The notes under the pieces: generated by a model
Told to the model about the DNA's origin: nothing
Database searches by the model: none
Seen by the model: only the letters and a program-made list of their open reading frames with translations
In this document: positions 2,840 to 49,914 of the stretch, piece by piece
How the letters are laid out: every line of letters starts with the position of its first letter
Position numbering within the stretch: the first letter of the stretch is position 1
NCBI GenBank assembly: GCA_007376135.1
Contig: VMFR01000001.1
Span: 379,016-443,015, forward strand
DNA length: 64,000 nucleotides
Source: Parcubacteria group bacterium Gr01-1014_31
GTDB lineage: Bacteria > Patescibacteriota > Patescibacteriia > Buchananbacterales > GWA2-38-13
Direction of reading: 5' to 3'
Program-made: the position numbers and the translations under genes

Positions 2840-3298
2840 TTAATGGCGAAAGGCCCAGAATTTGGTCACGGTAAAATTCCAGATCGTCGTGAATCCGATG
2901 GTCACGATATTGGCCGCAATGTCATGCCAGCCGAACTGCTCGACCAGGATGAAGAGCGCAATGTTCGAGCCCACCCCGCTGACGACGTTGGTGACGATGA
3001 ATCGGCGGTAGTGGTCCTGGGAATCTCCGCCGCCGACGCGGAAAGTCCAGCGCCGGTTCCAATAGAAGCTCCAGGTGACGGCGACCAGGAACGACAGAAT
3101 GCTCCCGGCCAGGAAATACCAGCGCAATCCGCGCGTCAACAACAGGTAGATGGTAAAGTAGACCGCGACATTGCTGGCGCCGACCAGACAAAATTTAATG
3201 AACTGGCGCGCCCCCCGATGACGATCGAGGACCGGAAACCAGCGCGTGATGACGCGCCGCACCGCCGTTACGCCCAAACGCACGTGATCAGCGAGCAT
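2840..3298 (-). CDS. GtrA-family polysaccharide biosynthesis membrane protein
   Basis: About 150 aa, four hydrophobic helices: FIKFCLVGASNVAVYFTIYLLL...WSFYWNRRWTF, typical of the GtrA family. Confidence 0.7.
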   Translation of the reverse strand: MLADHVRLGVTAVRRVITRWFPVLDRHRGARQFIKFCLVGASNVAVYFTIYLLLTRGLRWYFLAGSILSFLVAVTWSFYWNRRWTFRVGGGDSQDHYRRFIVTNVVSGVGSNIALFILVEQFGWHDIAANIVTIGFTTIWNFTVTKFWAFRH

Positions 3299-3305
3299 AC
3301 CGAGC

Positions 3306-5594
3306 TCAGCGGCCGGGGTTAGCCAGGAAAGTCACTCGCACGCCGCCGCGGAACGTCGCTGCATGCGCAAAGTACTCTCCCTTGAGGACGCCATCCATCG
3401 TCAGTATGCGTACGTGCGGACCGCCGCCCGGTCCAACGCCCGTAATGATCTCGACTTTTCCGTCGTCATCGACATCGCCCGCCGCCAGCGTCAGTCCTGC
3501 CTGCATATTCGTCGCATAGGCGTAAAATTCGGATATCCGTGTGTAGCCCGGGGCGTGGAACACCCGCACCAACGGCGGGCCTGAACGCGCAACGCTCGCG
3601 AGCACCTCGTCGAGGCCGTCCCCGTCGACATCGCCGGCGGCGACCGTCACCCCGGTGCGCGACAACGCATTATACGCGAAAAACTGTCCCCGCTGGTTAC
3701 CGTTGCCGGAAAATATCCGCACCTGCGGCCCACCCCCCGGCCCGGCGCCGGTGACCACCTCATCGATACCATCGCCGTCGACGTCGCCGGCCGCCACGGT
3801 CACGCCCCCGCGAAAGCCGGGCTCATACGCGTACCAACTGGCGATCTTTTCGCCAGCGGCAGTGAATACGGCGACTTGCGGCGCCGCATTGCCGGCGACC
3901 GCCACGATGATCTCGGCGGGACCCTTGCCGTCGACATTGCCGACCGCTACGTTCACGCCATGCCTGGTCCTGGAGTCAAAGGCGAAGAATTGCCCCCGGA
4001 CCTGGCCTTCACGGCTGAAAATCCGCACGTGCGGCCCACCCCCCGGCCCGGCGCCGGTGACCACCTCATCGATACCATCGCCGTCGACGTCGCCGGCCGC
4101 CACGGTGATGCTGCCGTTGAACGTCGGCGCGTAGGCAAAAAACGATTTCAATTCCTTGAAGGCGGAGGTGTGTAACTTGATCTGCGGGAACGAGCCGAAA
4201 CCAAGCGCCGATACGACCAGCCCCGATGGCTGTGCCGACGCCGGCGCAGAAGGACCGCGATACGCGACCGTTCGCGTCACAACCTTGGCGAGATTGATCT
4301 GGCCGCGGCCGACGCGGCCAATATGGCGGGGGTTGGCGGTTGTAATATCGTCGACGCTGGTCAATAGGATCTCGCGCACCGCCGCGGCGCTCAATTCCGG
4401 ACGCAGCGACCGGACGATCGCGGCCGCGCCGGAAATGATAGGTGTGGCCACCGAGGTGCCGGCCCACGAACCGCCGTACGGCTGCGTGTAGCCCGGACGC
4501 GCCGAATCGACATACAAAAGCCCGTAGAACTCCTGTCCGGGCGCCGCCAGATCGACGCAGTCCTTCCCGTAGTTAGAAAAACTGGACAGTTGCCGCTGGC
4601 GATTGAGCGCGACCACCCCAAGGATGAAATTATCCTTTTCGCCCGCATCCAAGCAGATCGGGTATGACGGGGTGAGTTCCAGATCCTTACCTGGCGTGCC
4701 GTCGGTGGTGTTGCCGGCCGCTGCGACGATAATGACGTTTTTGTCGGCCGCCGCCTTCAGCCCGTCATGGAGCGCCTGGCTGAAATCAACGCCGACGAAG
4801 CTCAAATTGACAATATCCGCCCGTTGGTTCACGGCGTATTCAACGGCGCGCAGCACATCATACACCGTGCCGTTGCCCTCCGAGTCCAGCACCCGCAGCG
4901 CCATGATCTTGGCCTTCCAGCTCACGCCGGTGATGCCGACGGCGTTATGGCTGTCGGCGGCCGCAACTCCGGCGACGATGGTGCCGTGATGGATAGCCTC
5001 AGGAAGGAATGCACCGTCGAACCGAGGGTTCGGATCGGGCGTGTTGCCGACGAAATCCCATCCTTGCCAGTCATCGATGAAGCCGTTCTGGTCGTTATCG
5101 ATGCGGTCACCCGCGCGTTCCGACGGATTGGTCCACAGCTTGCCGACCAACTCGGGCTGATCCGTATCGACACCGGTGTCTACCACGGCAATGACCGGCA
5201 CCTTCACCTGCCGATCCTCTTCCTCCAGCAGTTCGGCTGACCACGCGTCGCGCGCTTGAATGGCCGCCAGATACCATTGCTTGGCATAGTCCGGGTCGCT
5301 GGGGAACGCGCTGGCCTTGACGCGAAAATTCGGTTCCACATACGCGACGTCCGTACGCTGCCGGTATTCTTCCGCGACGGCGGCGAGACTGACATCGTCG
5401 GCAAAACGCAAACGCAGCACGCTGCCCGAACGCAAGCCGACCAGCAATTCCGCCGGCTGCGGATGGCTGACGGCCGTTGGCGCAGCCGCCGGCCAGACGC
5501 CAAGGATGATCGCGCACGCCGCCACCACCCACCGCCACGGACGGACCGAGGCGGGCGCGGTGTTGAGGTGCGGCGAATACGGCGCCATGATCAC
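3306..5594 (-). CDS. Secreted subtilisin-like serine protease (S8) with C-terminal FG-GAP/VCBS-type repeats
   Basis: N-terminal signal-like hydrophobic segment. Catalytic triad contexts VAVVDTGVD, HGTIVAGVAA and GTSVATPIISGAAAIV. Five or six C-terminal repeats of the form AAGDVDGDGIDEVVTGAGPGGGPHVRIF. Confidence 0.85.
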   Translation of the reverse strand: MIMAPYSPHLNTAPASVRPWRWVVAACAIILGVWPAAAPTAVSHPQPAELLVGLRSGSVLRLRFADDVSLAAVAEEYRQRTDVAYVEPNFRVKASAFPSDPDYAKQWYLAAIQARDAWSAELLEEEDRQVKVPVIAVVDTGVDTDQPELVGKLWTNPSERAGDRIDNDQNGFIDDWQGWDFVGNTPDPNPRFDGAFLPEAIHHGTIVAGVAAADSHNAVGITGVSWKAKIMALRVLDSEGNGTVYDVLRAVEYAVNQRADIVNLSFVGVDFSQALHDGLKAAADKNVIIVAAAGNTTDGTPGKDLELTPSYPICLDAGEKDNFILGVVALNRQRQLSSFSNYGKDCVDLAAPGQEFYGLLYVDSARPGYTQPYGGSWAGTSVATPIISGAAAIVRSLRPELSAAAVREILLTSVDDITTANPRHIGRVGRGQINLAKVVTRTVAYRGPSAPASAQPSGLVVSALGFGSFPQIKLHTSAFKELKSFFAYAPTFNGSITVAAGDVDGDGIDEVVTGAGPGGGPHVRIFSREGQVRGQFFAFDSRTRHGVNVAVGNVDGKGPAEIIVAVAGNAAPQVAVFTAAGEKIASWYAYEPGFRGGVTVAAGDVDGDGIDEVVTGAGPGGGPQVRIFSGNGNQRGQFFAYNALSRTGVTVAAGDVDGDGLDEVLASVARSGPPLVRVFHAPGYTRISEFYAYATNMQAGLTLAAGDVDDDGKVEIITGVGPGGGPHVRILTMDGVLKGEYFAHAATFRGGVRVTFLANPGR
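3708..4107. repeat. Intragenic near-identical direct repeat (about 90 bp, copies at 3708-3800 and 4015-4107) encoding FG-GAP repeat units
   Basis: gaaaatatccgcacctgcggcccaccccccggcccggcgccggtgaccacctcatcgataccatcgccgtcgacgtcgccggccgccacggt recurs almost exactly about 307 bp downstream. Confidence 0.8.
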
Positions 5595-8056
5595 TCGGGC
5601 TTACCTTCAAGCTGCTTGATGAAGGCATCAAATTCGGATTGTATCCCGGGGTCAAGCTGTAAAGCGCGCTCAGCCGCCTGCCGCGCCTTGGCTTTGTCGC
5701 CGTTGCGGGCGTAGGCCGTGGCGAGCTTGGCGTAGTGGTCGGCGGCCGGCGGATGCACGGTCAGCAGCTCTTCGTAGAGGGCGATCATCACCCCCCATTG
5801 GGATACGCTTTCGGCGGCGCGGATGACCCGCAGGTACTGGTCTTCCGGCACGACGCGCTTCAGCTGGTCTTTGATGATGCGAAATTCATTGCGCGCGTCA
5901 TCGGGACGATTCGCCAGCACGAACGCGACGGCCATATCGATGTGCGACTCCATGACGGTACCGGAAAGCGCGAGGCCCTGGCGGTAGTACTCCAACCCCT
6001 GCGTGATGTTGCCATCCATCAGGTAGGCTTGGCCGAGTTCGAAATACAGCTGCGGCCGCGTCGGGCTCAAGCTGATGGACTGCTCCACCAGCCGCGCGGC
6101 ATCGCGGGGAGCGTCGGCAATGACGGCCCGTGCACGATTAGCCACGCTCAAGTAGAACAAATGGTTCCGGATGTTGGTCGGCTCCTCGTCGACGCTTTTC
6201 CGCAGCTCCACGAGCGAATCGCGCACCACCTCCCCGACCGCAGCGCGGGGAACGCCGGAAACGCCCGCCAAACCCAGCGCATAGGTGGCGTACTGCTGAC
6301 GGGCCTCCATCCGGCCCGTGTAGGATCCGGCGATCGCCTCATGGAACAGCACACTTTGCTTTTCGGTATCCGGCTCCGAGAAAGTGAGCAACGCCTGATA
6401 GATCTTATGATTGGTGGCCAGGAGCTGATAGTTGAACAGGTAAAGCGAGCCGAGCATCGCCACGCCCAGCGCCACAAGCCCCGCGCTCTGCATCGAGGTC
6501 ATGACCGCGGCGCCGCGACCGGCCGGGAGCGGATGCTCATCGCCACGGACAACGATGGCCGCTAACACCAGGTGCGACAGTAGGTAGGACTCCAACGTGT
6601 CGAACACGAACATGTTCTGCACCAGATAGCCGACCAAGGCTGCCCCCAGCAGCGTGGCGCAAAACAGGTCATTGGCACGCCGCACGTAGCGAACGAGCCA
6701 CCAACCGGCCACGACGAACATCGCGATAAACCCGGCCAGCCCCAGCAGCCCGGTGGTAACGGCCGTATCCAGGATGACGTTATGCGCGCGGTCGAACCAG
6801 ATCTGCGAACCCAGGTCCTTGAAGATCCGCGCCGGGAAATGCGAATTGAATACCTGCGAATAATTCTCAAGGCCGTACCCAATGATGAACCGCACGGGTT
6901 CCTCGGCCCAGCCCTGCCAGCTCGCCCGCCAGGTGTCCAGCCGCGACTGGGAGGTCACATCTTCCAGCGAGATGGAGGCTAAGCGCGCCAAGGTCATGTC
7001 GTTCTTTACGAACGTGGTGTCGCGCGCAAAATAGAGGAACAGGGGCGCCAACAGCCCTGCGGCCAGCAACCCCAGGCTGATCTTGCCGGAGAGCGTTTTA
7101 CGACGGAAGAAGGAAAACAGCGCGCCGACCATCAACAATCCGGCCAACAGCCCGATAAGTGCGCCGCGCGTCTGCGTCTGATAGAAAATGAAAAAATCAA
7201 GCGCCGCCAATCCGGCAATGACACCGCGGATGACCCAGCGGTTCTGACGAAGGAAATATCCCGCCAAAGCCGCGGCCTGCGTCGCCAGGAGCGCGGTCAT
7301 TAAGCTGGGCGAGGCAGCCAGCTGAGTCAGCAAGGTGGTTTGCGCCTGCGGGTCCAATCTGGTCACCACGTCGTACCCGATCATGAACGCGTCAAAACCC
7401 AGAAAACTCCACCACAACAGCTTGGCGTCGAATTCGCGGTCACGGACGAAGAAATACGCTAGAAAGAACAGATGGAACAGGAGGTAGCCGGCCAGATAGG
7501 TCGCGTTCCCGATGGAGCCGGTCAACCGGGCGCCGCCCGATGACTTAAGCAGGAACGGGATCTGCAGCCACTGCCCCAGTGAGAACAGGCTCATCAGCGT
7601 GCTGACGAAGATGGAAAAGGTCAACAGCGACCGCCAATCTTCCCAGCGCCGGAACGTATTGGCAACGACAAAGAAAAAAGCGCCAACGTGCAGGTAGCCG
7701 AACAATCCGCCCATCCGTTCGTAGTTGCCCCAGAACCCCCAAGTCGGCTCGATGCCGGTGAGCGTGGTCAAAGCGGCGATGCCGACGAAGCTCAGCACCG
7801 CAATGGTCAGCGGCGTCCAACGCGGCCGGAATCTCGGGTCGCGGATGGCCAACGCCGCATAGGCGACGACCAATACTTCCACGATGGAACGGAAGAGAAC
7901 GTTCTTGAGGACGATGAACGGAAAGAAAAATTGGCTCCCCACGACCAGCGGTAACAAGAGCGTAGCGAGCGTGCCGAATCGGATGACCCACCACAGTAAT
8001 TCCGCGACGGGATCTTCGGTCCGCCGCCATAACCAGGATGGAAACTTGATAACCAT
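5591..8056 (-). CDS. O-antigen ligase (Wzy_C)-domain polytopic membrane protein fused to C-terminal TPR repeats
   Basis: About 500 aa with many TM helices, followed by about 300 aa of TPR-like repeats (ALQLDPGIQSEFDAFIKQLEG, MDGNITQGLEYYRQGLAL). 4-nt overlap with the downstream protease gene. Confidence 0.65.
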   Translation of the reverse strand: MVIKFPSWLWRRTEDPVAELLWWVIRFGTLATLLLPLVVGSQFFFPFIVLKNVLFRSIVEVLVVAYAALAIRDPRFRPRWTPLTIAVLSFVGIAALTTLTGIEPTWGFWGNYERMGGLFGYLHVGAFFFVVANTFRRWEDWRSLLTFSIFVSTLMSLFSLGQWLQIPFLLKSSGGARLTGSIGNATYLAGYLLFHLFFLAYFFVRDREFDAKLLWWSFLGFDAFMIGYDVVTRLDPQAQTTLLTQLAASPSLMTALLATQAAALAGYFLRQNRWVIRGVIAGLAALDFFIFYQTQTRGALIGLLAGLLMVGALFSFFRRKTLSGKISLGLLAAGLLAPLFLYFARDTTFVKNDMTLARLASISLEDVTSQSRLDTWRASWQGWAEEPVRFIIGYGLENYSQVFNSHFPARIFKDLGSQIWFDRAHNVILDTAVTTGLLGLAGFIAMFVVAGWWLVRYVRRANDLFCATLLGAALVGYLVQNMFVFDTLESYLLSHLVLAAIVVRGDEHPLPAGRGAAVMTSMQSAGLVALGVAMLGSLYLFNYQLLATNHKIYQALLTFSEPDTEKQSVLFHEAIAGSYTGRMEARQQYATYALGLAGVSGVPRAAVGEVVRDSLVELRKSVDEEPTNIRNHLFYLSVANRARAVIADAPRDAARLVEQSISLSPTRPQLYFELGQAYLMDGNITQGLEYYRQGLALSGTVMESHIDMAVAFVLANRPDDARNEFRIIKDQLKRVVPEDQYLRVIRAAESVSQWGVMIALYEELLTVHPPAADHYAKLATAYARNGDKAKARQAAERALQLDPGIQSEFDAFIKQLEGKPE

Positions 8057-8240
8057 AGTTCGCGGGATGACAAAAAATGAAACGGAGTAAGCGGAAACGT
8101 AACGCCGCGTAAAAAACGGCGTGGTTACGCCACTCTACAGTATTCGCACTCTACCATACCGCTCCATGACGGACAAGGGTGGAGATTTGCAAAAAACCAT
8201 AAATTACGCTAAAATTCCGGCCATCTGTAAAGAGCTGCCT

Positions 8241-9641
8241 ATGGACCGCGCTAACCGTCGCATGCGAACAACGATACTCGTCATCGGCGACATTGTCTGG
8301 TTGTACCTGGCGCTGTTTGCGACGCTTCAACTCCGTTACGGGGCCGTGGACGCAACGCTTTGGTGGGAACACTTCGGGCCGTTCACCATCGTCTTTGCGC
8401 TGTGGCTGGTCGTGTTCACGGTCTCGCGCTTGTACGACCTCAGCGCCAGCGGCGGACGGACCGATCTGGGCTTCCGGCTGTTCGGCGCACTGCTGGCTTC
8501 GGGCACGATCGCCGCCGCATTCTTCTACCTTGGGCACAACCGGCTGTTCACGCTGCGGCCGCAAAAAGTGCTGGCCTTGGTGCTGGTCGCAAGCTTCGTG
8601 GCGCTCTATGTCTGGCGGCTGCTCCTGCTGACGGCGCTGCGGTCGCAAGCGCTCTCGCGCCGCGTGGTATTCGTCGGCATCCAGCCGATCATCCCGCAGC
8701 TGATCGCGGAACTGGTCGCCAAACCGCAACTGGGGTTCACCCCGGCCGCCTGGATCAAGGTCAACGGCAACGCGGCGCAAAATATCGAAATTTCGAAATT
8801 TCGAAATATTGATGTGCCAACCTACCATGAAGTCACGGGTCTGCCCGATCTGTGCCAACGCCACGGCGCCGATCTCATTGTCTCGGGCATCAGCCCGCGC
8901 CAGCATACCACCCTGCTCAAAGAGCTGGTGGCGTGCCTGCCGCTGAGGATCGATTTCTCCGACCTTTCCACGTTCTACGAACGCATCACGGGGAAAGTGC
9001 CCGTCGACGCCATCGAGCAGGTCTGGTTCCTGGAAAACCTTCAGGAGGGCACCAAACGGCCGTATGAATCCATCAAGTGGATCACCGACCTGGCCCTGGC
9101 GGCCGTGCTGTTGGCGCTCACGCTGCCCATCCTTCCTCTGCTGTATATTCTGGTGAGGTTCACCAGCCCCGGCCCGTTCCTCTTCAAGCAGACCCGCGTC
9201 GGCCAGGCCGGACGCAAATTCACGGCGATGAAGATCCGCACCATGGTGGTGGACGCTGAAAAGCACGGGCCGCAGTGGGCCAGCCACAACGATGCGCGCG
9301 TCACCACCGTCGGCCGCTTTTTGCGCCAGATCCGGCTGGACGAGATCCCGCAGCTCGTCAACGTCCTGCGCAGCGAGATGAGCCTGATCGGTCCGCGTCC
9401 GGAGCGGCCGGAGTTCATCGAGCAGCTCAAACAAAGCATCCCCTTTTACGAGGAACGGCTGCTGGTCAAACCCGGCCTGACCGGCTGGGCGCAGGTGAAT
9501 TTTCCGTACGGCGCTTCGGTGCAAGACGCGCTGGAAAAACTGCAGTACGACCTCTTCTATATCAAACACCGCTCACTCGGACTGGACCTGAGCATTGTGC
9601 TGCGCACGATCGGCACGATGCTTGCCCACAGCGGCCGCTAA
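8241..9641 (+). CDS. Polyprenyl-phosphate hexose-1-phosphate transferase (WbaP/WcaJ-type priming phosphoglycosyltransferase)
   Basis: C-terminal bacterial sugar transferase domain ILVRFTSPGPFLFKQTRVGQAGRKFTAMKIRTMVVDAE...IRLDEIPQLVNVLRSEMSLIGPRPERPEF; N-terminal TM helices. ORF-track GTG at 8121 rejected; ATG 8241 (MDRANRRMRTTILVIGD) is preferred, and ATG 8166 is also possible. Confidence 0.85.
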   Translation: MDRANRRMRTTILVIGDIVWLYLALFATLQLRYGAVDATLWWEHFGPFTIVFALWLVVFTVSRLYDLSASGGRTDLGFRLFGALLASGTIAAAFFYLGHNRLFTLRPQKVLALVLVASFVALYVWRLLLLTALRSQALSRRVVFVGIQPIIPQLIAELVAKPQLGFTPAAWIKVNGNAAQNIEISKFRNIDVPTYHEVTGLPDLCQRHGADLIVSGISPRQHTTLLKELVACLPLRIDFSDLSTFYERITGKVPVDAIEQVWFLENLQEGTKRPYESIKWITDLALAAVLLALTLPILPLLYILVRFTSPGPFLFKQTRVGQAGRKFTAMKIRTMVVDAEKHGPQWASHNDARVTTVGRFLRQIRLDEIPQLVNVLRSEMSLIGPRPERPEFIEQLKQSIPFYEERLLVKPGLTGWAQVNFPYGASVQDALEKLQYDLFYIKHRSLGLDLSIVLRTIGTMLAHSGR

Positions 9642-10955
9642 TCCGAATATTCCCGCGACGGCCAGCGCGAACAGCTGCGGCTGCACCGGCTGGCGGTAGC
9701 GCGCGTGCGACAACGGACTGGAAAGCAACGCGGTCAGCACAATGGCTGCCGCGAACAGGAAAGCAAATGTCCTGGCCGGCGGAGACAGACGACGGGCCGC
9801 AAAGGTTCCCGCCAGGGCCAGCAGCGTGATGACCGCGCCGAATACCATGCCGGCCAGATGCGCCAGGGAAGGCGCGTCGGTTCTGGTCAACGCCCCGACC
9901 ACGGTCCCCCACTGCCGACGCGTCAATGCCGTGGTAATATCGACCGGCCGTTCCCCGCTGGGTAATCCGACCGATTCGGCCACGTCCCGCCACCCCGACT
10001 GCAAAAAGAACGGGGTGGTTTTTATGATATACAGCGGCACATACGACCGCCACTCGGAAAGCAGGATCTCGCGCGCCCGGCGCCCGGCAAACGCATCCCG
10101 CACGCGTTCGTCGTTCGGCAGCGCTTCCCACTCGCGGATCAGTTCCCCGCGCACCTGCCCCGGCGTTTTTCCTTCGCGCAAGGCCTGGGCCTGGTTGGCG
10201 TGGAAAAAGAGCAGCAAAAAATTGCTCTGCATCGTCAATTTCCATAACCCGAACTGGCGTCCGTTGCGGACGATCCACGGGGACAGCAACCCGCCAATCA
10301 CGACCACCATGACCAGCGTGCCTACCAGCGCGCGCCGCAGATCAACCTTACCGTGCCCAAACAACCACCAGACCATCAGCAACCCCGCCAGATAGATGCC
10401 CGAAAAACGCACGTAGGTAGCCGCGGCAAGTGTTACCCCGCACCCCGCGAGCCACGGCCAGCCCCGAGTCCACGCGCGCACGTAACAGTAGAACGCCAGC
10501 ATCAAAAGGGTAACGAACAGCGTATCGCTCATCAAAAGATTTGCCTGCAGCACCGTAAACGGTTCCAGGCCATAGAGCAAAGATGACCAGAATGCGACGC
10601 GGCGTCCGAACACCGCATCCATCACAAGGAACGCGAGCGCAATGGTCGCCAGGGAAAGCAGCTGCTGGACCAGGGCGGTGAACCAAGGCGCCGCATTGGC
10701 CGCCATCGTTGCCGCCAGAAACAGCGGGTAACCGGGCAGGTGCAGCATCGTGGGCGTCGGCGGATCCCCGGGGTACTCGGAAAATACGCCGTACTGTCGC
10801 AGATTTTGCGCTGCGGTCAGATACAGCGGCGAGTCATTGGAGCGCAAAAAAACCGCGTCTCCCTGCGTGACGGCGGAAACGAACAGGGCGGCGCGCAGCG
10901 CGACGCCAAAGATCAGCACGATGAGCAGCGGGCGGGAAACGGCGGGCCACACCAT
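9573..10955 (-). CDS. GT-C fold glycosyltransferase, ArnT/PMT-like (GT39/GT83 family)
   Basis: 460 aa polytopic membrane protein: PGYPLFLAATMA...LVMDAVFGRRVAFWSSLLYGLEPFTV...LMSDTLFVTLLMLAFY, typical of 4-amino-arabinose/mannosyl transferase superfamily N-termini. Converges with and overlaps the phosphoglycosyltransferase gene by 69 nt. Confidence 0.7.
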   Translation of the reverse strand: MVWPAVSRPLLIVLIFGVALRAALFVSAVTQGDAVFLRSNDSPLYLTAAQNLRQYGVFSEYPGDPPTPTMLHLPGYPLFLAATMAANAAPWFTALVQQLLSLATIALAFLVMDAVFGRRVAFWSSLLYGLEPFTVLQANLLMSDTLFVTLLMLAFYCYVRAWTRGWPWLAGCGVTLAAATYVRFSGIYLAGLLMVWWLFGHGKVDLRRALVGTLVMVVVIGGLLSPWIVRNGRQFGLWKLTMQSNFLLLFFHANQAQALREGKTPGQVRGELIREWEALPNDERVRDAFAGRRAREILLSEWRSYVPLYIIKTTPFFLQSGWRDVAESVGLPSGERPVDITTALTRRQWGTVVGALTRTDAPSLAHLAGMVFGAVITLLALAGTFAARRLSPPARTFAFLFAAAIVLTALLSSPLSHARYRQPVQPQLFALAVAGIFGLAAAVGKHRADRAQHNAQVQSE

Positions 10956-10958
10956 AGA

Positions 10959-14318
<3,360 letters not shown>

Positions 14319-14319
14319 A

Positions 14320-15279: not shown

Positions 15280-15282
15280 AGA

Positions 15283-17453: not shown

Positions 17454-17506
17454 GCAGCCGGCGTTTCACCGATGTGAACACCAACCCCAAAGAAGGAGGA
17501 TGAACC

Positions 17507-37022: not shown

Positions 37023-37046
37023 ATACAAAAAAGGCTTTTCGGCCAA

Positions 37047-37076: not shown

Positions 37077-37093
37077 GATTAAGCCGAAATCAG

Positions 37094-37127
37094 AAAACCG
37101 CCGCCCACGGGATATGGACGGCGGCTC
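37094..37127 (-). terminator. Probable rho-independent terminator after the 700-aa hypothetical gene
   Basis: Minus-strand reading CCGCCG...(14 nt)...CGGCGG followed by TTTT. Confidence 0.35.
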
Positions 37128-37144
37128 ATTCATCCTCCCACTAC

Positions 37145-39497: not shown

Positions 39498-40649
39498 ATG
39501 CCTGCAAAGATCCTCTTCGTCGTCACCCAGTCGGAAATGGGCGGCGCTCAGCGGTATGTGCGCGACCTGGCAACTGCGCTGGGCCGCCATGACTTTATGG
39601 TCGGCGTTGCCGCAGGCGAGGGCGGCCCGTTGCTCGCCCAGCTGGCGGCAGTGAACGTCGCTACGTTCCCGCTCAAACACTTGCAGCGGCGTATCGCGCC
39701 GTTCAATGACCTCAAGGCCGTCGCGGAGCTTGCCAATCTCATCAAACGCTGGCAGCCCGACCTGGTCCACCTCAACTCATCCAAAGCGGGGGTGATCGGC
39801 GGACTGGCAGCCCGACGCTCCGGCACGCGCTGCCGGGTCGTCTATACGGCGCATGGATTCGTTTTTAATGAACCGCTCCCCGGGTGGCAACGCGTGCTCT
39901 ACCGGGTGGCGGAACGTCGCAGCGCATCGTGGAAGGATGTCATCCTGTGCGTTTCGGAAGCCGACCGGCAATCGGCCATTGCCGCCCGCATTGCTCCGCC
40001 CGGCAAGCTCGTCACCATCCACCTCGGCATTGGCGCTGCTGCCGGAGAGCGTGCACCGGCTGAAGCCCGCGATCGTTTGCGGGAACGGGGGGTCCCGCCG
40101 GAAGGCTTGCTGGTCGGCACCATCGCCCACCTCTATCCGACCAAGGGTTTGTTGGATCTCATTTCCGCTGCTGCGCAAACGGTCCGCCAAACCCCGGCAA
40201 CGTTTCTCATCATCGGCGAAGGTACACAACGCACTCTCCTGACCGAAAAGATCCGCGCCGCGGGGCTGCAACGTTCCGTGCTGCTGCTGGGAGAGATCCC
40301 CGATGCGGCTCGCCTGTTGCCGGCCATAGACGTCTACGCCAGCTCGTCGGTCAAAGAAGGATTCCCGTACGCGCTCTTGGAAGCGATGCTTGCGGCGCGA
40401 GCGATCGTGGCCACCGCGGTCGGCGGCGTGCCGGAAATGATCGGAGACAACCAGCACGGCCTGCTGGTACCCGCCGGCAACCCGGCCGCGCTCGCTGCCG
40501 TCGTCGCACGACTCTTGAGATCACCGGAAGAACGCGAACGCCTGGGCCAGGCCGCCCTGAATCGCGTCCGGCAAACCTTCACCCTGGACTCCATGGTGGA
40601 GGCGACCGTCAGCGCCTACCGCATCCTGCTGCCGCGGTCGACGCGATGA
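39498..40649 (+). CDS. Glycosyltransferase family 4
   Basis: MPAKILFVVTQSEMGGAQRYV... EGFPYALLEAMLAARAIVATAVGGVPEMI. Confidence 0.8.
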   Translation: MPAKILFVVTQSEMGGAQRYVRDLATALGRHDFMVGVAAGEGGPLLAQLAAVNVATFPLKHLQRRIAPFNDLKAVAELANLIKRWQPDLVHLNSSKAGVIGGLAARRSGTRCRVVYTAHGFVFNEPLPGWQRVLYRVAERRSASWKDVILCVSEADRQSAIAARIAPPGKLVTIHLGIGAAAGERAPAEARDRLRERGVPPEGLLVGTIAHLYPTKGLLDLISAAAQTVRQTPATFLIIGEGTQRTLLTEKIRAAGLQRSVLLLGEIPDAARLLPAIDVYASSSVKEGFPYALLEAMLAARAIVATAVGGVPEMIGDNQHGLLVPAGNPAALAAVVARLLRSPEERERLGQAALNRVRQTFTLDSMVEATVSAYRILLPRSTR

Positions 40650-40728: not shown

Positions 40729-41451
40729 TCACTTCCCTTCCCGCCGGTAGCGCCACAATAGCCACAACGCCTGGACGCCGTCGCGCCAGGTGATCTTTTT
40801 GCCCTGAGAGAACCGCCGCGGATGGTAGCTGATGGGCACCTCCACCAAACGGAACTTGCGCTGCAGCACGCGGGCGGTGAATTCCACTTCAAAATCAAAA
40901 CGGTCGGCGTGGAGCTCCAGCCCATCCGCCAGCTCGCGCCGAAAAGCCTTAAAACCCGTCTCCACGTCGTGCACGCGGCGATAGAACAGCAGGCTGCACC
41001 ACCAGGAAATGAAAAAATTGCCGAACCAATACCGCCAGTAGCCGACGGGGTTGCCGTCGTGCATGCGATTGCCGTAAACTACGTCGGCGTAGCCCTCACG
41101 CAGCGGCGCAATCAACTGGTCGTGCTCCTGCGGGTCATACTCGGCGTCCGCGTCCTGGATAACGAGGTACTGCCCGCGGGCGGCCGCAATTCCCGTGCGC
41201 AACGCCGCACCCTTGCCGCGGTTCTTCTCATGAACGTACAGCCGCAGTATACCGCGCGACGCCGACTCTTGCAGCACCGCGCGACTGCCGTCCGTTGAAC
41301 CATCGTCCACGGCAACGAGCTCGAACGCGGGCCCATGCCGGTAGGCGCGCTGCAACGCCTCGATGGTCGCGCCCACGGTTGCCGCCTCGTTATAGACGGG
41401 CATGACCACGGTGACGACCGGAGCGACGGGTAACGGAGATTTCTGCTGCAT
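40729..41451 (-). CDS. Glycosyltransferase family 2 (soluble)
   Basis: VVTVVMPVYNEAATV...VAVDDGSTDGS...LVIQDADAEYDPQE. Confidence 0.8.
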   Translation of the reverse strand: MQQKSPLPVAPVVTVVMPVYNEAATVGATIEALQRAYRHGPAFELVAVDDGSTDGSRAVLQESASRGILRLYVHEKNRGKGAALRTGIAAARGQYLVIQDADAEYDPQEHDQLIAPLREGYADVVYGNRMHDGNPVGYWRYWFGNFFISWWCSLLFYRRVHDVETGFKAFRRELADGLELHADRFDFEVEFTARVLQRKFRLVEVPISYHPRRFSQGKKITWRDGVQALWLLWRYRREGK

Positions 41452-41465: not shown

Positions 41466-42209
41466 CTAGCGGCTGTCACGGTACTGGCGGTATTCTTGCT
41501 GCACGGCAGCATCGTTGGGGGTGAGGCGCAAGGCCTGTTGGTAGTACGCCAAGGCCTTGGCGCGCTCCCCGATCTGGGCGGCGTGGCGCGCGGCGCGTAA
41601 TGGCAGTTCTACCCGCGCGGGGTTCGCAGCGATCCCTTCGTCAATGACGGCGAACGCCTTGTCCTGGTCGTTGATCTTGTACCGGTAGAGGTCGAACAGG
41701 TTGGCCCAGAAAAAGGTGTTGCGGTCCTCACCGGCGGAATTGCTGATGGCCTGACGGTAGGCGGCCTCCGCCTGCACCGGGTCATAGAGAAAATTCGTGT
41801 ACAGGTCGCCCAGATTATTGAAGGACAAGCTGTTGGCCGGCCGTATTTGGCCGGCGTAATCCCACACCTCGGCCGCGCCCTCGAAATCGCCCATCGCCTT
41901 TTTGATGCCGCCGATGGTTATCCAGCCGTCGAAAAAATCCGGGTCCTCCCGCAACATTTTGACGGCCGAATCGAACACCCCCCGCTCGCGCTCCACCACA
42001 ATTGGGTCGATGTTCTTACTAACCACCTTGAAGGTGAAATAGCGTTCCAAGCCGGTGGGGGTCGGCGTCGCGGTGGGCACGGGCCCGCCACCAGACAGCG
42101 AGAACCGCAGCACAAACACCAGCACGATGAGGCCGATGCCGATACCGACGGCGACCAGCTTGCCGTTGCCGCGGGAAGCGTTGGGAACGGACGTTTCGTT
42201 GTTCGTCAT
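41466..42209 (-). CDS. TPR-repeat protein with N-terminal membrane anchor
   Basis: LVAVGIGIGLIVLVFVL TM segment; TPR-like AEAAYRQAISN, KALAYYQQALRLTPNDAAV. 4-nt overlap with the downstream GT-C gene. Confidence 0.55.
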   Translation of the reverse strand: MTNNETSVPNASRGNGKLVAVGIGIGLIVLVFVLRFSLSGGGPVPTATPTPTGLERYFTFKVVSKNIDPIVVERERGVFDSAVKMLREDPDFFDGWITIGGIKKAMGDFEGAAEVWDYAGQIRPANSLSFNNLGDLYTNFLYDPVQAEAAYRQAISNSAGEDRNTFFWANLFDLYRYKINDQDKAFAVIDEGIAANPARVELPLRAARHAAQIGERAKALAYYQQALRLTPNDAAVQQEYRQYRDSR

Positions 42210-43987
42210 AATGATGATGGCGTTGTGGTTACCTTCGGCTGCCCCTCCCCCGCCGGATTAAGAAACAGTTCGTAGACCTTGAACGCGGGTTGACCGTCCG
42301 CTGCGACAATCTCCGTGACTCTCCCCGGCGCTCCCCCGTCAAGCATTCGCTGCAGACCGGCTCCGATCTTTTTGCTTGCCAACTGCTCCCCCTCCTGGGC
42401 GGCCCACGGGTCGTAGACGCGGGGGTTGTTGCCGATCACCACGTAGGCGGTGCGAATGCCGGCCCGCGCCAGCCGCGGCAGCCAATCCTCCCCGAGACCG
42501 ACGACCACGTCGGTCGGCAGCAACAGCGCATCAACATCGTGGTACACGCGGTAACGCCGCAGATACCAAAAGGCCGAAAACCACGTCAGCCCGTCGTCGT
42601 ACAGCAGGACGTCCTCGCCGGCCGTGAGATGAATATTCTGCCACTCTTCGTAGGTGGCAAACGACCGCACGGCGGGCCGGTAGGTCGGGCTTTGCGCCAA
42701 TTTTGGCAGCAGGTAAGCGACCAATTCCTGAAAACCCAAGCGCTCCTGGCGGTAGGCGGCAAAATGGCGGCCGCGGGTACCGTAGGCTGCCAGGACGAGA
42801 TTGGTATTCCAATTAAACAGGAGTTCGACTCCGGCGGCAACTGCCGCCAAGACAATGATGGCAAGGGCCGCGTTCTTTCTTGACCCGCTGTTCCAGCGCG
42901 CGATCGCGGCAAGCGCCGCTGCGGAAGGCAGCACCAGCCATGGCACCAGAATGGGCAGATAGCGCAAACTGGGCGCCGTCAGCGCGAAGAACGCGGTTGC
43001 TGAAACCAGGGTGAAGAGCGGCAGCAGGTCGCGATTGCGGCGGCTGCCGCGCACCACGCTCCAGGCCGAGAACGCAAGCCCGGCGGCCAGCAGCAGGACG
43101 AACGGCGGCGAGAAAGCTTTGCTAAGGCTCAACCCCAGGTCGCGCAAATTCACGGCGATATTTCTCGTCCGCGGCCCGTCGAACAAGAGCGGCCAATCGC
43201 GGCTGGCCGCTTCCAACGACGAAGGCACCAAGGTCGTGAGCTGCACGTCCAGGTGGCCGCGGGCAAGCCACATCTGCCAGTTGTAGGTGACTACGGGCGA
43301 CAACAGCGCCACAACCACCCCCAAGGAAAGCCAGAACCGACGGTCAGAGAGCCACGCGCGGTGCCGCAGCAGCAGCAACGCGCCAAAGACGGGGATGAGG
43401 ATGAGCGCGCTGTACTTGGAAAGAATGGCCAGCGCCAGTCCCGCTCCCCAGACCGGGAGGAATCGCGAATCGCTTTCTGCTTTCAGCCACAGCCAGACGG
43501 CCAACAAAATGAACGCCTGCGTAACGCCCTCGAGGTAGCCGATACGGCTGGACCAGGTGAAGAACGTGGACACGGAAAGCAACGCGGCGGCAAGCAGCCC
43601 CATGGCCGGTCCGCCGCAGCGCCGGCCAATGCCATAAATGAGCAGCACCGACCATACGCCAGCGAGGGCGAACGGCAGCAGCGCGACCACATCGCTCTCG
43701 CCCAACAGCCGGAAGAACGCGTGCTGGATGAGAAAGACCAGCGGCGGGTGGTCGTGCATGGAAAACTTGGTCCACAACGGCGGTGCGATGGGTGCAAACC
43801 ACTGCAGCGGCGTGGTCTGGCGCGCCGAATCCAAGAAATCAAAGTACCCGAGCGCGCGCAGCGCGTAGTGGCCGGCATCCGTCTGCACGTCGGCGCGGTT
43901 CAACCGAAAAAAAATCAGCCCGCCGGCGATTACCGCGATTACCAACAGCACGAGGTGTTCCCGCCGTATGCGGAACGTTGATTTCAT
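42206..43987 (-). CDS. GT-C fold glycosyltransferase, ArnT/PMT-like (third copy)
   Basis: 593 aa polytopic: FRLNRADVQTDAGHYALRALGYF...HDHPPLVFLIQHAFFRLLGESD...LSKYSALILIPVFGALLLL. Confidence 0.7.
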   Translation of the reverse strand: MKSTFRIRREHLVLLVIAVIAGGLIFFRLNRADVQTDAGHYALRALGYFDFLDSARQTTPLQWFAPIAPPLWTKFSMHDHPPLVFLIQHAFFRLLGESDVVALLPFALAGVWSVLLIYGIGRRCGGPAMGLLAAALLSVSTFFTWSSRIGYLEGVTQAFILLAVWLWLKAESDSRFLPVWGAGLALAILSKYSALILIPVFGALLLLRHRAWLSDRRFWLSLGVVVALLSPVVTYNWQMWLARGHLDVQLTTLVPSSLEAASRDWPLLFDGPRTRNIAVNLRDLGLSLSKAFSPPFVLLLAAGLAFSAWSVVRGSRRNRDLLPLFTLVSATAFFALTAPSLRYLPILVPWLVLPSAAALAAIARWNSGSRKNAALAIIVLAAVAAGVELLFNWNTNLVLAAYGTRGRHFAAYRQERLGFQELVAYLLPKLAQSPTYRPAVRSFATYEEWQNIHLTAGEDVLLYDDGLTWFSAFWYLRRYRVYHDVDALLLPTDVVVGLGEDWLPRLARAGIRTAYVVIGNNPRVYDPWAAQEGEQLASKKIGAGLQRMLDGGAPGRVTEIVAADGQPAFKVYELFLNPAGEGQPKVTTTPSSL

Positions 43988-47927: not shown

Positions 47928-48191
47928 TACAATGATTATTGGTTACGTTCCTCCGCCGCACGGAAGTGGACCGACAACCGATTTGGAATACTGCCGGGCG
48001 CTGCCGTCCTCCGGGGGTTAAACCGGAATCGACCTTTGACGGTACGCCGGACAGCTCGGCTGCTGCCCTGCATCCCACGCAACGGATGAACTGTTAAAAC
48101 AACGACCGGGTTGCCAACGCCTGCAGTCCCCTTTCAGGCCGCCGGCGCCGATATCGTTCGTGCTCGCCCCAAATAGCGACACGATGACCAG

Positions 48192-48290: not shown

Positions 48291-49343
48291 TTACGGCAGC
48301 AGCCCCTGGGTCGTCTCACCGGCCAGGTTGTTATCACCGGCGGTCGGCACCGTTTCCGCGGTTGTGGAAGACGTGCCGCCATCGGTTGCCGCCTCCGGGG
48401 CCGCCGCGGGCTTGGCGGGCTCCAACTGCTGGCGCACGCTGTTGATGATACCAAGTGCTTCCGTGAAATTCCCGGCGGCAAGAGCTGCCTGGGCGGTGTC
48501 CAGCGCGTGGGCAAGCGTTGGCGCTGCCACCGCAACGGTGGTCGTCGCAACAGGATCAACTTGCGGTAGTTGCGCGCGCAGACGCTCCACTTTTTCGTTC
48601 AAATAGCGGCGCACGTCATCGGTCGGCAACTCCTGGCTGCTGCTGGCCGTGGCGCTGATGGCCGCCTCCAGGGTGCTGAAACTCGTTTGTTCCGCTGCCA
48701 TTAACGCTTCGTGGACGACCTGGTTCACCTCGTCGCCGCTGCCGCCGTCATTTTGCAGCTGCTGGGCAAGCTCAGTGCCGGCCTGCTCCACGGATACGGC
48801 CATCTTGAACGCGGCGCGCTGGTCGGCCGGCAAGCGCTGCAAGTCCTTCCGCATGGACGCAACCTCCTCGGCAAACCGCGTCACTACGCGGGAAACTTCT
48901 TTGGGCGTACTGCGACGATCGGCCTGGCGGGAGACCAGGTGGCCAAGTTCTTTGACGCGGTTACGCGCGAATTCCAGCTTCAATTCCGCCTTGCGGGTGG
49001 TGTCGCTGACCATCGCCAGCTGGGTGCGCTCGAACGCCAATTTCATCCGGTAGAGCGGCTCGCCCGGCAGGCTATAGAAGGCCGCATTGACCATCAGGCT
49101 ACTGACCATGACCGCGCCCAGCACCGCCACGAAGCTGACCACCGGCTGGCGGACGAACTGGGTAACGGACTGCCAGAACCGCGTCGTCACGCTCCAGGTT
49201 GCGGCTGGCAGCACCACCGGCATTACCTCGCCCTGACGCCGGACTTCCGCCAACAGCAGATCGTGGGTAGCCGAAACCCAGTCGGCCCGAGGGGCGACTT
49301 TTTGCAGCTGACGCAGGGAATCGATGACGTTACGACGGTTCAT
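48291..49343 (-). CDS. Putative anti-sigma factor (single-pass membrane protein downstream of and overlapping the ECF sigma gene)
   Basis: Cytoplasmic N-terminus, one TM helix (VVSFVAVLGAVMVSSLMVNAAFY), Ala/Gln-rich extracytoplasmic domain. 14-nt overlap with the sigma gene. Confidence 0.5.
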   Translation of the reverse strand: MNRRNVIDSLRQLQKVAPRADWVSATHDLLLAEVRRQGEVMPVVLPAATWSVTTRFWQSVTQFVRQPVVSFVAVLGAVMVSSLMVNAAFYSLPGEPLYRMKLAFERTQLAMVSDTTRKAELKLEFARNRVKELGHLVSRQADRRSTPKEVSRVVTRFAEEVASMRKDLQRLPADQRAAFKMAVSVEQAGTELAQQLQNDGGSGDEVNQVVHEALMAAEQTSFSTLEAAISATASSSQELPTDDVRRYLNEKVERLRAQLPQVDPVATTTVAVAAPTLAHALDTAQAALAAGNFTEALGIINSVRQQLEPAKPAAAPEAATDGGTSSTTAETVPTAGDNNLAGETTQGLLP

Positions 49344-49914
49344 GGGTGGATGGGGTCGTAGTTGCGGGATCGTTGAACTGCGTGCGAATTATTTGGAGGG
49401 CTCGGAAGAGGATGACTCGGACCGCCCCTTTTGATTTACCGACGATATCGGCAATCTCACCGATGGAGAGTTCTTCCACGTACCGCAGCAGCACGACATC
49501 CTTGTACTCGTCCTTGAGCTGCCGAACGGCGTTGGCAATGTCGACCAGTTCCACCGAGCGTTCGATCTGCTGGAACAGACGCTGCTGATGGTGGTCGACC
49601 GCATCCAGCAGAACGTCGGTGTCCAGGCTGACATCCTGGCTGGCGCGCTGCCGGTAATGGTCGATGACCAGGTTCCTCGCGATCTGGTACAGCAGCGCCC
49701 CAATACTCTGAACGCTGCGTTGCTGCTGGTACAGGTATTGCCACGCGCGCAGGAAAACGTCCGCGCTCAGGTCTTCCGCCTCTTCATGGGTTCTCACCTT
49801 GAAGAGGATGAAGCGGTAGATCCTTGCAATGTACTCGTTGTAGAGCTCACTGAAAGCGGCACTGTCGCCGGAGGCGATCCTGTGCGCCAGGTGATGCTGC
49901 TGAATCTTGTTCAT
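49330..49914 (-). CDS. ECF (sigma-70 family group IV) RNA polymerase sigma factor
   Basis: Region 2 FSELYNEYIARIYRFILFKVRTHEEAEDLSADVFLRAWQ; region 4 ELSIGEIADIVGKSKGAVRVILFRALQ. Confidence 0.85.
   Translation of the reverse strand: MNKIQQHHLAHRIASGDSAAFSELYNEYIARIYRFILFKVRTHEEAEDLSADVFLRAWQYLYQQQRSVQSIGALLYQIARNLVIDHYRQRASQDVSLDTDVLLDAVDHHQQRLFQQIERSVELVDIANAVRQLKDEYKDVVLLRYVEELSIGEIADIVGKSKGAVRVILFRALQIIRTQFNDPATTTPSTHEPS

Follow-up and report, generated by a model that had tools for sequence, protein, structure and literature searches.

A 64,000-nucleotide stretch of the genome of Parcubacteria group bacterium Gr01-1014_31 (contig VMFR01000001.1, positions 379,016 to 443,015), hereafter the window, was analyzed with respect to the gene of a 1269-aa surface protein, here named BIG, and to the glycosylation genes found with it. 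The window has a G+C content of 62% and carries one long gene cluster, mostly on the minus strand. Families were assigned with Pfam, complemented with NCBIfam models and matches in the Protein Data Bank (PDB). All genes named in a preliminary description of the window, which had proposed a multi-sugar glycosylation system acting on BIG, were found on the minus strand at the coordinates given there, and Pfam upheld every family assignment. The following features, in the direction of transcription, form the central part of the cluster (ECF, extracytoplasmic function; TPR, tetratricopeptide repeat; TM, transmembrane; GT, glycosyltransferase):

49330-49914, minus strand: ECF-type sigma factor (Pfam Sigma70_r2, PF04542; r4_2, PF08281; ECF, PF07638)
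48291-49343, minus strand: putative anti-sigma factor, a single-pass membrane protein with an extracytoplasmic DUF5667 domain (PF18915, E 3e-9)
48009-48060, minus strand: 5' leader element of the BIG mRNA, with hairpin P1 (48060-48046), the 8-mer AAAGGTCG (48037-48030) and hairpin P2 (48028-48009)
44118-47927, minus strand: BIG, surface protein of 1269 aa, secreted or anchored; a candidate both for the surface coat (S-layer) and for a glycan acceptor
44074-44045, minus strand: intrinsic terminator behind the BIG gene (stem of 13 bp with 11 GC pairs; T tract)
42206-43987, minus strand: GT-C3, polytopic glycosyltransferase of the GT-C fold (PMT_2, PF13231, 86.7 bits)
41466-42209, minus strand: membrane-anchored TPR protein (Pfam TPR)
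40729-41451, minus strand: DPM1/AglJ/PpgS-like GT2 without TM helices (NCBIfam AglJ, 122 bits; P. furiosus DPMS, 5mlz, E 8e-18)
40718-40699, minus strand: terminator at the end of the GT-C3-TPR-GT2 operon

BIG bears a single N-terminal hydrophobic segment, is rich in Thr (12.9%) and Ser (8.3%; 21% Ser+Thr) and contains 4 Cys residues. It matched no Pfam family at E values up to 1, and no SLH, CWB2 or other known S-layer or anchoring domain. More than 500 homologues were found, nearly all of 1130-1300 aa and aligning end to end; those of named origin all belonged to Patescibacteria (Buchananbacteria, Uhrbacteria and other Parcubacteria) and were all annotated as hypothetical. The AlphaFold2 (AF2) model consisted of an N-terminal alpha/beta domain, which is the most conserved part of the protein, followed by approximately eight beta-sandwich (cohesin/Ig-like) domains. 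Codon bias was the strongest among the 42 genes of the window, with the lowest effective number of codons (ENC, 34.6). The Ser+Thr content, the lowest ENC, the strong terminator and the long conserved leader described below suggest that BIG is probably an abundant surface-coat protein, and it is plausibly the S-layer protein of its host.

The unit that follows the BIG terminator is compact. The genes of GT-C3 and the TPR protein overlap by 4 nt, in agreement with the translational coupling noted in the preliminary description. In the TPR protein, an N-terminal TM helix (residues 18-36) is followed by a Pro/Thr linker (PVPTATPTPTG), so that the repeats are predicted to lie outside the membrane. 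Based on its matches, the GT2 is a predicted polyprenyl-phosphate-sugar synthase, and the three genes would together provide for donor synthesis and sugar transfer, along with the TPR protein. No promoter-like site was found between the BIG terminator and GT-C3; given this, and the position of the unit between two terminators, GT-C3-TPR-GT2 is probably expressed by read-through from BIG.

The PMT_2 score of GT-C3 was far above the cutoff (26.1 bits), while its PMT score (PF02366, 24.1 bits) was marginally over the cutoff of 22.7. In the first loop after TM1, which reads R-A-D33-V-Q-T-D37-A-G-H-Y, the DE motif of PMT is absent and D-x3-D-A is found instead. D33, D37, D50 and an HDHPP motif in this loop are invariant in the GT-C3 family, and their position outside TM1 fits a predicted active extracytoplasmic site. 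A search with the family profile returned only close relatives and distant PMT_2 proteins from outside the candidate phyla radiation (CPR). GT-C3 also passed the STT3 N-terminal threshold (27.2 bits), and N-glycosylation of BIG was considered and rejected, as PMT_2 fits far better and as the 18 N-x-S/T sequons of BIG, few of them conserved, are not above the number expected from composition (12.8 ± 3.2, p ~0.08). The earlier picture of BIG as a giant, Thr/Ser-rich and Cys-poor protein with its own terminator was retained, whereas the statement that it is full of sequons was not. CPR bacteria have no lipopolysaccharide genes, and their envelope formation and structure have been described as unclear (PMC5220378). 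Since the host is a monoderm Patescibacterium without a periplasm, the system called periplasmic in the preliminary description should be termed extracytoplasmic.

In order to evaluate whether these genes stay together in other genomes, the context of five BIG homologues was analyzed along with 59 loci fetched from species-representative genomes (loci numbered with L). Open reading frames (ORFs) were labelled with hidden Markov models seeded from the window proteins, and divergent GT-C or Wzy_C genes of Paceibacteria-type loci were possibly missed; Wzy_C denotes the superfamily of O-antigen ligases, O-oligosaccharyltransferases and polymerases. Downstream counts refer to a core set of 41 loci with full-length BIG and at least 5 kb of downstream sequence, upstream counts of the regulatory genes to 47 related loci, and the related loci are not phylogenetically independent in either case. 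Several metagenome-assembled genomes carried the titles 'uncultured Gammaproteobacteria', 'Candidatus Saccharibacteria' or 'archaeon' (L008, L015, L017, L022, L024, L028 and others), which, judging by what the loci contain, are probably wrong and were not used for taxonomy.

The order ECF sigma, DUF5667, BIG, TPR was conserved across Patescibacteria. The ECF gene was located within 3 kb upstream of BIG in 32/47 loci, and the DUF5667 gene upstream of BIG in 33/47. On the other side, a TPR protein of approximately 230 aa was encoded within 5 kb downstream of BIG in 38/41 loci, as the immediate neighbour in 24 of them. Within the same distance, 13/41 loci had a GT-C and 13/41 a Wzy_C protein (700-870 aa, often fused to TPRs and often in two copies), with one or the other present in 25/41; some glycosylation gene was found within 8 kb in 33/41. 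Altogether, 42 GT-C and Wzy_C genes were counted in the 222 kb made up by the 5 kb downstream of BIG, versus 1 in 417 kb of upstream flanks. Full-flank counts showed the same asymmetry for each gene family:

TPR: 45 downstream, 0 upstream
GT4: 63 downstream, 1 upstream
GT-C: 22 downstream, 0 upstream
Wzy_C: 22 downstream, 1 upstream
UDP-glucose/GDP-mannose dehydrogenase (UGDH): 16 downstream, 0 upstream
ECF sigma: 0 downstream, 35 upstream
DUF5667: 0 downstream, 36 upstream
DUF5656: 0 downstream, 17 upstream

Gene order was shuffled between lineages (BIG-GTC-TPR(-GTC), BIG-TPR-GTC, BIG-TPR-WZY-WZY, BIG-WZY-TPR-WZY) while the linkage was kept, with Wzy_C directly following BIG in L019, L024, L045 and L053. 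The linkage also persisted at 25-45% BIG identity, in Buchanan-, Falkow-, Magasanik-, Portnoy- and Harrisonbacteria and in Paceibacter. Every BIG-linked GT-C was GT-C3-like, and none resembled the other two GT-C enzymes of the window, GT-C1 and GT-C2. Since the TPR protein was present in most loci without a nearby GT-C or Wzy_C, its primary partner appears to be BIG rather than the enzyme; since two mechanistically different extracytoplasmic transferases alternate next to BIG-TPR, the shared element is BIG-TPR itself.

Shared ancestry may explain part of this conservation, as many loci came from related ABY1/Buchananbacteria-type lineages, and GT-C, Wzy_C and BIG might act independently as members of an inherited island of envelope genes, with no functional coupling among them. 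This is very hard to reconcile with a linkage that is maintained at such low identity across lineages, with rearranged order and a switched enzyme class, with the extreme asymmetry between upstream and downstream flanks, or with an operon that shows no promoter-like site past the terminator of BIG, and we give it very little credence. A real functional link between BIG and the extracytoplasmic transferases is, in our judgement, highly probable. The linkage expected in the preliminary description was recovered in related genomes, in part: GT-C3 is tied to BIG, whereas GT-C1 and GT-C2, which had been assigned to the same surface protein, were never found linked to it.

Two further observations concern BIG homologues. 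Short paralogues (420-506 aa) were encoded a few genes downstream of full-length BIG in L019, L021, L024 and L048. Poly-Thr or (TTP)n linkers, such as TTTTTTTTTTTTTTP and TTPTTPTTPTTPATP, were present in the homologues of L025, L034, L049 and L060 (Paceibacteria/Yanofskybacteria-type). Although these linkers resemble classic O-glycosylation linkers, no GT-C or Wzy_C is located close by in the same loci, and both the ECF pair and the leader motif are missing from them.

Upstream of BIG, the sigma factor carries sigma-70 regions 2 and 4 only, and its gene is overlapped by 14 nt by that of the DUF5667 protein, which has a TM helix at residues 63-81 and a Ser/Thr-rich C-terminal tail. An anti-sigma role of the latter is suggested by its conserved pairing with the sigma gene and by this overlap. 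Of the ECF/anti-sigma pair proposed earlier, the sigma factor was confirmed by Pfam and the pairing by its conservation, whereas no anti-sigma domain model matched the DUF5667 protein.

The intergenic region between the putative anti-sigma gene and BIG spans 364 nt and contains the leader element. The 8-mer was recovered with at most one mismatch in 36 of the 37 equivalent intergenic regions (among L003-L065), at a chance expectation of approximately 0.13 per region, and 35-36 of its 50 exact occurrences in 1.08 Mb of loci were located upstream of BIG. P2 starts one base past the 8-mer in the window and 0-3 nt past it across loci, whereas hairpin P1, ahead of the 8-mer, is variable. Anchored hairpins were counted with shuffle and positional controls: a hairpin of at least 5 bp followed the 8-mer in 29/43 cases, compared with 8-21/43 at other offsets. 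The P2 hairpins comprised 34 distinct stem sequences and, judging from these arms, the stems appear to covary. RNAalifold predicted no structure on a MAFFT alignment of the leader, because loop lengths differ, and no match to the element was found in Rfam. Third-position G+C (GC3) is 0.75-0.85 in the window while most related loci are AT-rich, and protein order, 8-mer and hairpin geometry were kept across this range; the element was missing from BIG loci without the ECF/DUF5667 pair. A role of the 8-mer as an autoregulated ECF promoter was also considered. There was no conserved -35 element upstream of it and it was absent upstream of ECF genes, so that an RNA element is more likely than a promoter; our guess is that the leader acts as a stabilising or regulatory element.

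A DUF5656 protein with 9 TM helices (50442-51458, minus strand) is encoded a few genes upstream of the ECF/anti-sigma/BIG unit, as in 17 related loci, usually with an HtrA/PDZ-type protein in between. Being the only unassigned polytopic protein near the cluster, it is, speculatively, a flippase candidate.

The remainder of the cluster contains a larger set of glycosylation genes:

979-1653, minus strand: PpgS-like polyprenyl-phosphate-sugar synthase, a GT2 without TM helices (NCBIfam PpgS, 196 bits, full length)
1745-2824, minus strand: NAD-dependent epimerase/dehydratase (Pfam)
2840-3298, minus strand: GtrA-family protein, putative flippase (PF04138, 86.5 bits, E 2e-24, whole profile covered)
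3306-5594, minus strand: secreted S8 subtilase with FG-GAP repeats (Pfam), translationally coupled to Wzy_C-TPR by an overlap of 4 nt
5591-8056, minus strand: Wzy_C-TPR, O-antigen ligase/O-oligosaccharyltransferase/polymerase superfamily (PF04932, 61.7 bits, cutoff 31.7), with C-terminal TPR repeats
8121-9641, plus strand: polyprenyl glycosylphosphotransferase (PGT), priming enzyme of WbaP/exopolysaccharide type (PF02397, 209 bits; TIGR03025, 361 bits, cutoff 295.6)
9573-16587, minus strand: module of DegT aminotransferase, GtrB1, GDP-mannose 4,6-dehydratase, epimerase/reductase, methyltransferase and GT-C1 (Pfam)
9573-10955, minus strand: GT-C1 (PMT_2, 40.5 bits; PMT below cutoff)
14320-15279, minus strand: GtrB1 (PF00535; Synechocystis GtrB, PDB 5ekp, full length, E 1e-73; PgfS, 248 bits)
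18652-26211, minus strand: GtrB2 with an amino-sugar pathway (GNAT, 4,6-dehydratase/epimerase, aminotransferase, nucleotidyltransferase, AsnB-type amidotransferase; Pfam)
18652-19626, minus strand: GtrB2 (PF00535; PgfS, 218 bits; ArnC, 154 bits)
24346-26211, minus strand: AsnB homologue
26296-30067, minus strand: module of GtrB3, a GT4 (27270-28409) and GT-C2 (Pfam)
26296-27249, minus strand: GtrB3 (PF00535; NCBIfam ArnC best, 192 bits)
28406-30067, minus strand: GT-C2 (PMT_2, 42.1 bits; no PMT match; DE motif after TM1, 'VGDEP')
30073-35681, minus strand: five consecutive GT4 glycosyltransferases (Pfam)
35739-37133, minus strand: UGDH (Pfam)
37145-39247, minus strand: 700-aa membrane-anchored Pro/Gly-rich coiled-coil protein (no family match)
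39498-40649, plus strand: GT4 glycosyltransferase (Pfam), conserved in position in related loci

The Wzy_C-TPR, the PGT, the two DPM1/PpgS-like GT2s and the GT4s, seven in the window, had been missed in the preliminary description, as had UGDH, the AsnB-type amidotransferase and several pathways for amino and deoxy sugars. Its assignment of the three GT-C proteins to ArnT/PMT-like families is refined here: PMT_2 was matched by all three and PMT was not the best match, and the DE motif is present in GT-C2 but absent from GT-C3. The three GT-C proteins have no mutual similarity detectable by BLAST. GtrB1, GtrB2 and GtrB3 matched PF00535 with E values of 1e-30 to 1e-33 and each carry two C-terminal TM helices, and matches to the ArnC and PgfS models extended over the full length; the best NCBIfam model of the first two was PgfS of S. 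mutans, and GtrB3 is only 29% identical to either. Against solved structures, Wzy_C-TPR was matched in its TPR part alone, and oligosaccharyltransferase, ligase and polymerase are indistinguishable by sequence. The PGT gene is convergent with that of GT-C1. A minus-strand ORF (8151-9569, 472 aa), whose translation is Arg/Gln-rich and matches no family, was rejected as a spurious antisense of the PGT, which is the real gene. In L061 the block S8-GtrA-epimerase-GT2 directly follows BIG-TPR, which indicates that the far-left genes of the window belong to the BIG neighbourhood. Among the window ORFs scanned with Pfam there was no gene for Wzx (as the preliminary description had stated, together with Wzz and ABC exporters), an ABC exporter (Wzm/Wzt), Wzz or LCP; an exporter may lie elsewhere in the genome.

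The S8 subtilase might, speculatively, process BIG. The 700-aa protein has an N-terminal TM helix, Pro/Gly/Tyr-rich low complexity, a Cys-rich motif CGDTMCDEGKGENQSNCPKDCGG, a long coiled coil and the segment 'TPSPTPTPG', and only the closest relatives (L001, L002, L009) have it in the corresponding place. Small plus-strand genes interrupt the minus-strand cluster at 16710-18655, namely one with a NUDIX domain (18122-18655), a NUDIX-like paralogue without a Pfam match (17507-18058) and one without a Pfam match (16710-17453); together with the minus-strand gene at 23836-24183, grouped with them, they may serve sugar-nucleotide housekeeping or else be insertions. A block of plus-strand genes beyond the region discussed here (57997-63152: HMGL/DmpG-like aldolase, thiamine-pyrophosphate enzyme, DegT-type aminotransferase, class I/II aminotransferase) may be a further modified-sugar or phosphonate-type pathway.

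This gene content raises the possibility that a cell-wall polysaccharide or exopolysaccharide is made and decorated here. The PGT and GT4s would build the polymer, Wzy_C would polymerise it, and GtrB/PpgS-type synthases with GT-C enzymes would add side-chain sugars outside the membrane; BIG would be unglycosylated, and a neighbour either as a wall-anchored polymer binder or through the clustering of envelope genes. The PGT scored over the NCBIfam cutoff, and it occurs here with the seven GT4s, Wzy_C, UGDH and several sugar-nucleotide pathways, yet none of the 66 related loci yielded a PGT, and exporters (Wzx or ABC), Wzz and an LCP ligase were missing from the window. PpgS, the nearest match of the GT2 at 979-1653, provides a sugar for arabinogalactan decoration in mycobacteria, and O-antigens, teichoic acids and rhamnopolysaccharides are the classical targets of three-component Gtr-type systems. 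The surroundings of GT-C1 and GT-C2 are sugar genes and not BIG, as this explanation would have it, but the GT-C3 family is located right at BIG/TPR, often between both, and not in the GT4 block; likewise, a Wzy_C with a fused or adjacent TPR is a hallmark of protein O-oligosaccharyltransferases (WsfB, PglL, WsaA/B). Conservation of BIG is highest at its N-terminal domain, as expected of an anchoring module, and in C. difficile the S-layer/cwp locus adjoins the PSII locus. The PSII polymer anchors the S-layer/cwp proteins (PMC4973711), and SccN and Glc-P-Und side chains have been described (PMC11092751). On balance, we regard a polysaccharide locus with an unglycosylated BIG as unlikely, though the strongest of the rival explanations.

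The explanation we favour, at about even chances of being correct, is that of a surface-protein O-glycosylation locus with BIG as the covalent glycan acceptor. Starting from the observed identities of the genes, the folds and topology of their products, the layout of the operon and the conserved linkage, we infer the following scheme. BIG would be exported by Sec as a major, highly expressed surface coat, transcribed from its own structured leader and controlled by the dedicated ECF sigma/DUF5667 anti-sigma pair. Its strong terminator would pass a small fraction of transcripts into GT-C3-TPR-GT2. The DPM1-like GT2 would load one sugar on polyprenyl phosphate at the cytoplasmic face, the lipid-linked sugar would be flipped, possibly by GtrA, and GT-C3 would move it to Ser/Thr residues of BIG as the protein emerges from the membrane, while the membrane-anchored, extracytoplasmic TPR protein may hold or present BIG. 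The PGT, the seven GT4s, the sugar-nucleotide pathways, GtrB1-3, GT-C1 and GT-C2 would build and decorate a larger glycan, which Wzy_C-TPR may transfer en bloc to BIG, as in S-layer slg systems. The PGT and Wzy_C-TPR route is an equally good candidate for modifying BIG, and GT-C1 and GT-C2 with their GtrB partners, whose neighbours are sugar-nucleotide and GT4 genes, might just as well act in the decoration of a glycan.

Several points weigh against this explanation. The acceptor role of BIG is a prediction. In fold comparisons, GT-C3 scored 20.5 with ALG12, 19.4 with ArnT, 18.7 with STT3B, 17.8 with ALG9, 17.5 with Pmt2, 17.3 with AglB and 16.3 with PglB, at 11-16% identity to each. It is thus equidistant from lipid-, glycan- and protein-directed GT-C enzymes, and sequence and profile searches of the PDB returned no relative, including no PMT chain, so that its acceptor class is unreadable from homology. 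The roles best known for Gtr-type modules, PpgS-like synthases and PGT+GT4+Wzy_C sets are in making and decorating polysaccharides, and the window has no flippase for a glycan linked to undecaprenyl diphosphate according to the Pfam scan. No GT-C or Wzy_C was found within 5 kb downstream of BIG in 16/41 loci, and no recognisable glycosylation gene within 8 kb in 8/41; neither the Ser+Thr content of BIG nor its richest Ser/Thr/Pro window differed between loci with and without an adjacent GT-C or Wzy_C. As regards S-layer status, fold searches with BIG returned only generic Ig, cohesin and Calx-beta arrays. Finally, the known acceptors of Pmt, Pgf and PgtC are Ser/Thr-rich disordered regions, unlike the folded BIG, whose AF2 model (pLDDT 86; 22 of 1200 modelled residues below 50) shows almost no disorder, Ser/Thr-rich or other.

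The last point would be accommodated if GT-C3 and the GT2 were a general O-glycosylation system for short, disordered Ser/Thr/Pro-rich segments, with BIG a co-regulated neighbour and not the main substrate. Candidate acceptors would then be the Pro/Thr linker of the TPR protein, the Ser/Thr-rich tail of the DUF5667 protein and the 'TPSPTPTPG' segment of the 700-aa protein, and a precedent is given by streptococcal GT-C systems (GtrB/PgtC2, PgfS/PgfM1), which target Ser/Thr-rich disordered regions of many membrane-associated proteins (PMC11092751). A general system, however, has no need of tight linkage to one gene over many lineages, nor of a Wzy_C that replaces GT-C at the same position, and the BIG homologues of some lineages themselves bear poly-Thr or TTP linkers; we therefore consider it improbable. 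As regards O-glycosylation of BIG by several sugars, as first proposed, the linkage and the precedent of S. mutans Pgf speak for it, whereas the folded state of BIG, its sequon numbers and the unlinked GT-C1 and GT-C2 do not.

More tentatively, and with doubts that outweigh our confidence, the O-glycosylation of BIG could be generalised to a Parcubacteria-wide cassette for an S-layer glycoprotein with dedicated assembly and O-glycosylation machinery. It would be composed of the ECF sigma, DUF5667, the structured AAAGGUCG leader, the beta-sandwich protein of approximately 1250 aa, the TPR protein and a GT-C or Wzy_C. GT-C enzymes transferring single sugars and Wzy_C enzymes transferring glycans en bloc, two classes of unrelated mechanism, would have replaced each other repeatedly at the same acceptor/TPR pair, and leader and anti-sigma factor would couple the coat to the state of the envelope.

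No description of the BIG family, the locus, DUF5667 or DUF5656 was found in the literature searched. S-layers have been seen by microscopy on some Patescibacteria, and reviews name no gene for them (PMC13293708). The cassette described here is distinctive in being conserved throughout the phylum, in having two classes of transferase alternate at one acceptor/TPR pair, and in its dedicated ECF/anti-sigma pair. Molecular characterisation of the CPR/Patescibacteria cell envelope is essentially lacking, and its surface coat is what these episymbionts show to hosts and phages. The locus nominates a concrete and widely conserved coat candidate for Parcubacteria, along with the pair that probably regulates it, the conserved RNA of its leader, the TPR protein as its partner and the most likely glycosylating enzymes. 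Even if BIG is not glycosylated, the locus defines a conserved neighbourhood of envelope genes and an RNA element that had not been reported.

Among known systems, the Pgf system of S. mutans, acting on Cnm and WapA, offers a close parallel. There, cnm, a terminator and pgfS-pgfM1 (PMT_2-type)-pgfE are co-transcribed by read-through, and the Pgf machinery glycosylates Cnm (PMC5856776); more generally, GtrB and GT-C enzymes O-glycosylate streptococcal surface proteins (PMC11092751). Both loci pair a polytopic PMT_2-type transferase, acting outside a monoderm membrane, with a membrane GT2 for the synthesis of a polyprenyl-phosphate sugar, and in both the surface-protein gene lies directly upstream with a terminator between, read-through having been shown for cnm and being inferred for BIG. 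They differ in that GtrB1 and GtrB2 (248 and 218 bits) score far under the PgfS equivalog cutoff of 500, and in that no sequence link between GT-C3 and PgfM1 was detectable beyond the PMT_2 domain; PgfM1 and PgfM2 were described in later work as YfhO-domain proteins (PMC11092751). Moreover, Pgf acts on Thr-rich repeats and disordered regions whereas BIG is a folded beta-sandwich array, and the present locus adds a TPR partner, the ECF/anti-sigma pair and Wzy_C.

Similarities were also found with the slg clusters of Geobacillus stearothermophilus and Paenibacillus alvei. These include a WbaP-type PGT (WsaP/WsfP) and glycosyltransferases, as well as the AsnB homologue WsfA in P. alvei; the S-layer O-oligosaccharyltransferases WsaB and WsfB carry Wzy_C, with C-terminal TPRs in WsfB and PglL, while WsaB lacks them and is encoded alongside the small TPR protein WsaA, and the S-layer genes sgsE and sgtA are close to their own slg clusters (PMC2943079). 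The window likewise has a WbaP-type PGT (8121-9641), a Wzy_C with fused TPR (5591-8056), a small separate TPR protein (41466-42209), an AsnB homologue (24346-26211), a monoderm envelope and a surface-protein gene transcribed alone near the cluster. In contrast to the slg clusters, it contains no ABC or Wzx exporter, and its Wzy_C gene is 36 kb from BIG, although Wzy_C is adjacent to BIG(-TPR) in 13/41 related loci. It also has extra Gtr-type modules, and BIG lacks SLH and any other known S-layer domain; the slg systems have been studied by experiment, whereas the activities at the present locus are predicted.

Actinobacterial Ppm1/Pmt (GT39) is a protein O-mannosylation system. As in it, a DPM1-like predicted polyprenyl-phosphate-sugar synthase without TM helices is encoded together with a GT-C enzyme, whose predicted role is the glycosylation of Sec-exported proteins on the outer side of the membrane; unlike in it, the PMT match of GT-C3 is marginal (24.1 against 86.7 bits for PMT_2), D-x3-D-A stands in place of DE, and the acceptor is not disordered. 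Gtr-type glycan decoration is exemplified by GtrA/B/C, ArnC/ArnT, GacI/GacL, CsbB/YfhO and PpgS/Rv3779. GtrA, synthases of GtrB and PpgS type, and GT-C enzymes with acidic residues in the first extracytoplasmic loop are all present in the window; those systems modify lipids or polysaccharides, however, whereas the GT-C family linked to BIG goes with the gene of a protein and not with the glycan genes.

An order comparable to that of L019, L024, L045 and L053 is pilA-tfpO/pilO, where the pilin gene is followed by its own Wzy_C O-oligosaccharyltransferase, just as Wzy_C directly follows BIG in these loci. The substrate here would be a 1250-aa beta-sandwich protein instead of a pilin, and often there are two Wzy_C paralogues; the pilin enzymes tfpO/pilO are named together with those of S-layers in PMC2943079. 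As for folded acceptors, the eukaryotic TMTC1-4 proteins, PMT-clan GT-C enzymes fused to TPRs, O-mannosylate cadherin beta-sandwich domains (PMC7001481; PMC7801869), which indicates that such enzymes can act on proteins of folded domains. A PMT_2 membrane domain, lumenal or extracytoplasmic TPRs and an acceptor of tandem folded beta-sandwich domains are common to both, yet here the TPR protein is encoded by a separate, translationally coupled gene that tracks BIG even where no GT-C is nearby, and demonstrated homology ends at the domain families. The locus is a demonstrated member of none of these systems; most plausibly, to judge from the features it would share with each, it works like a combination of them.

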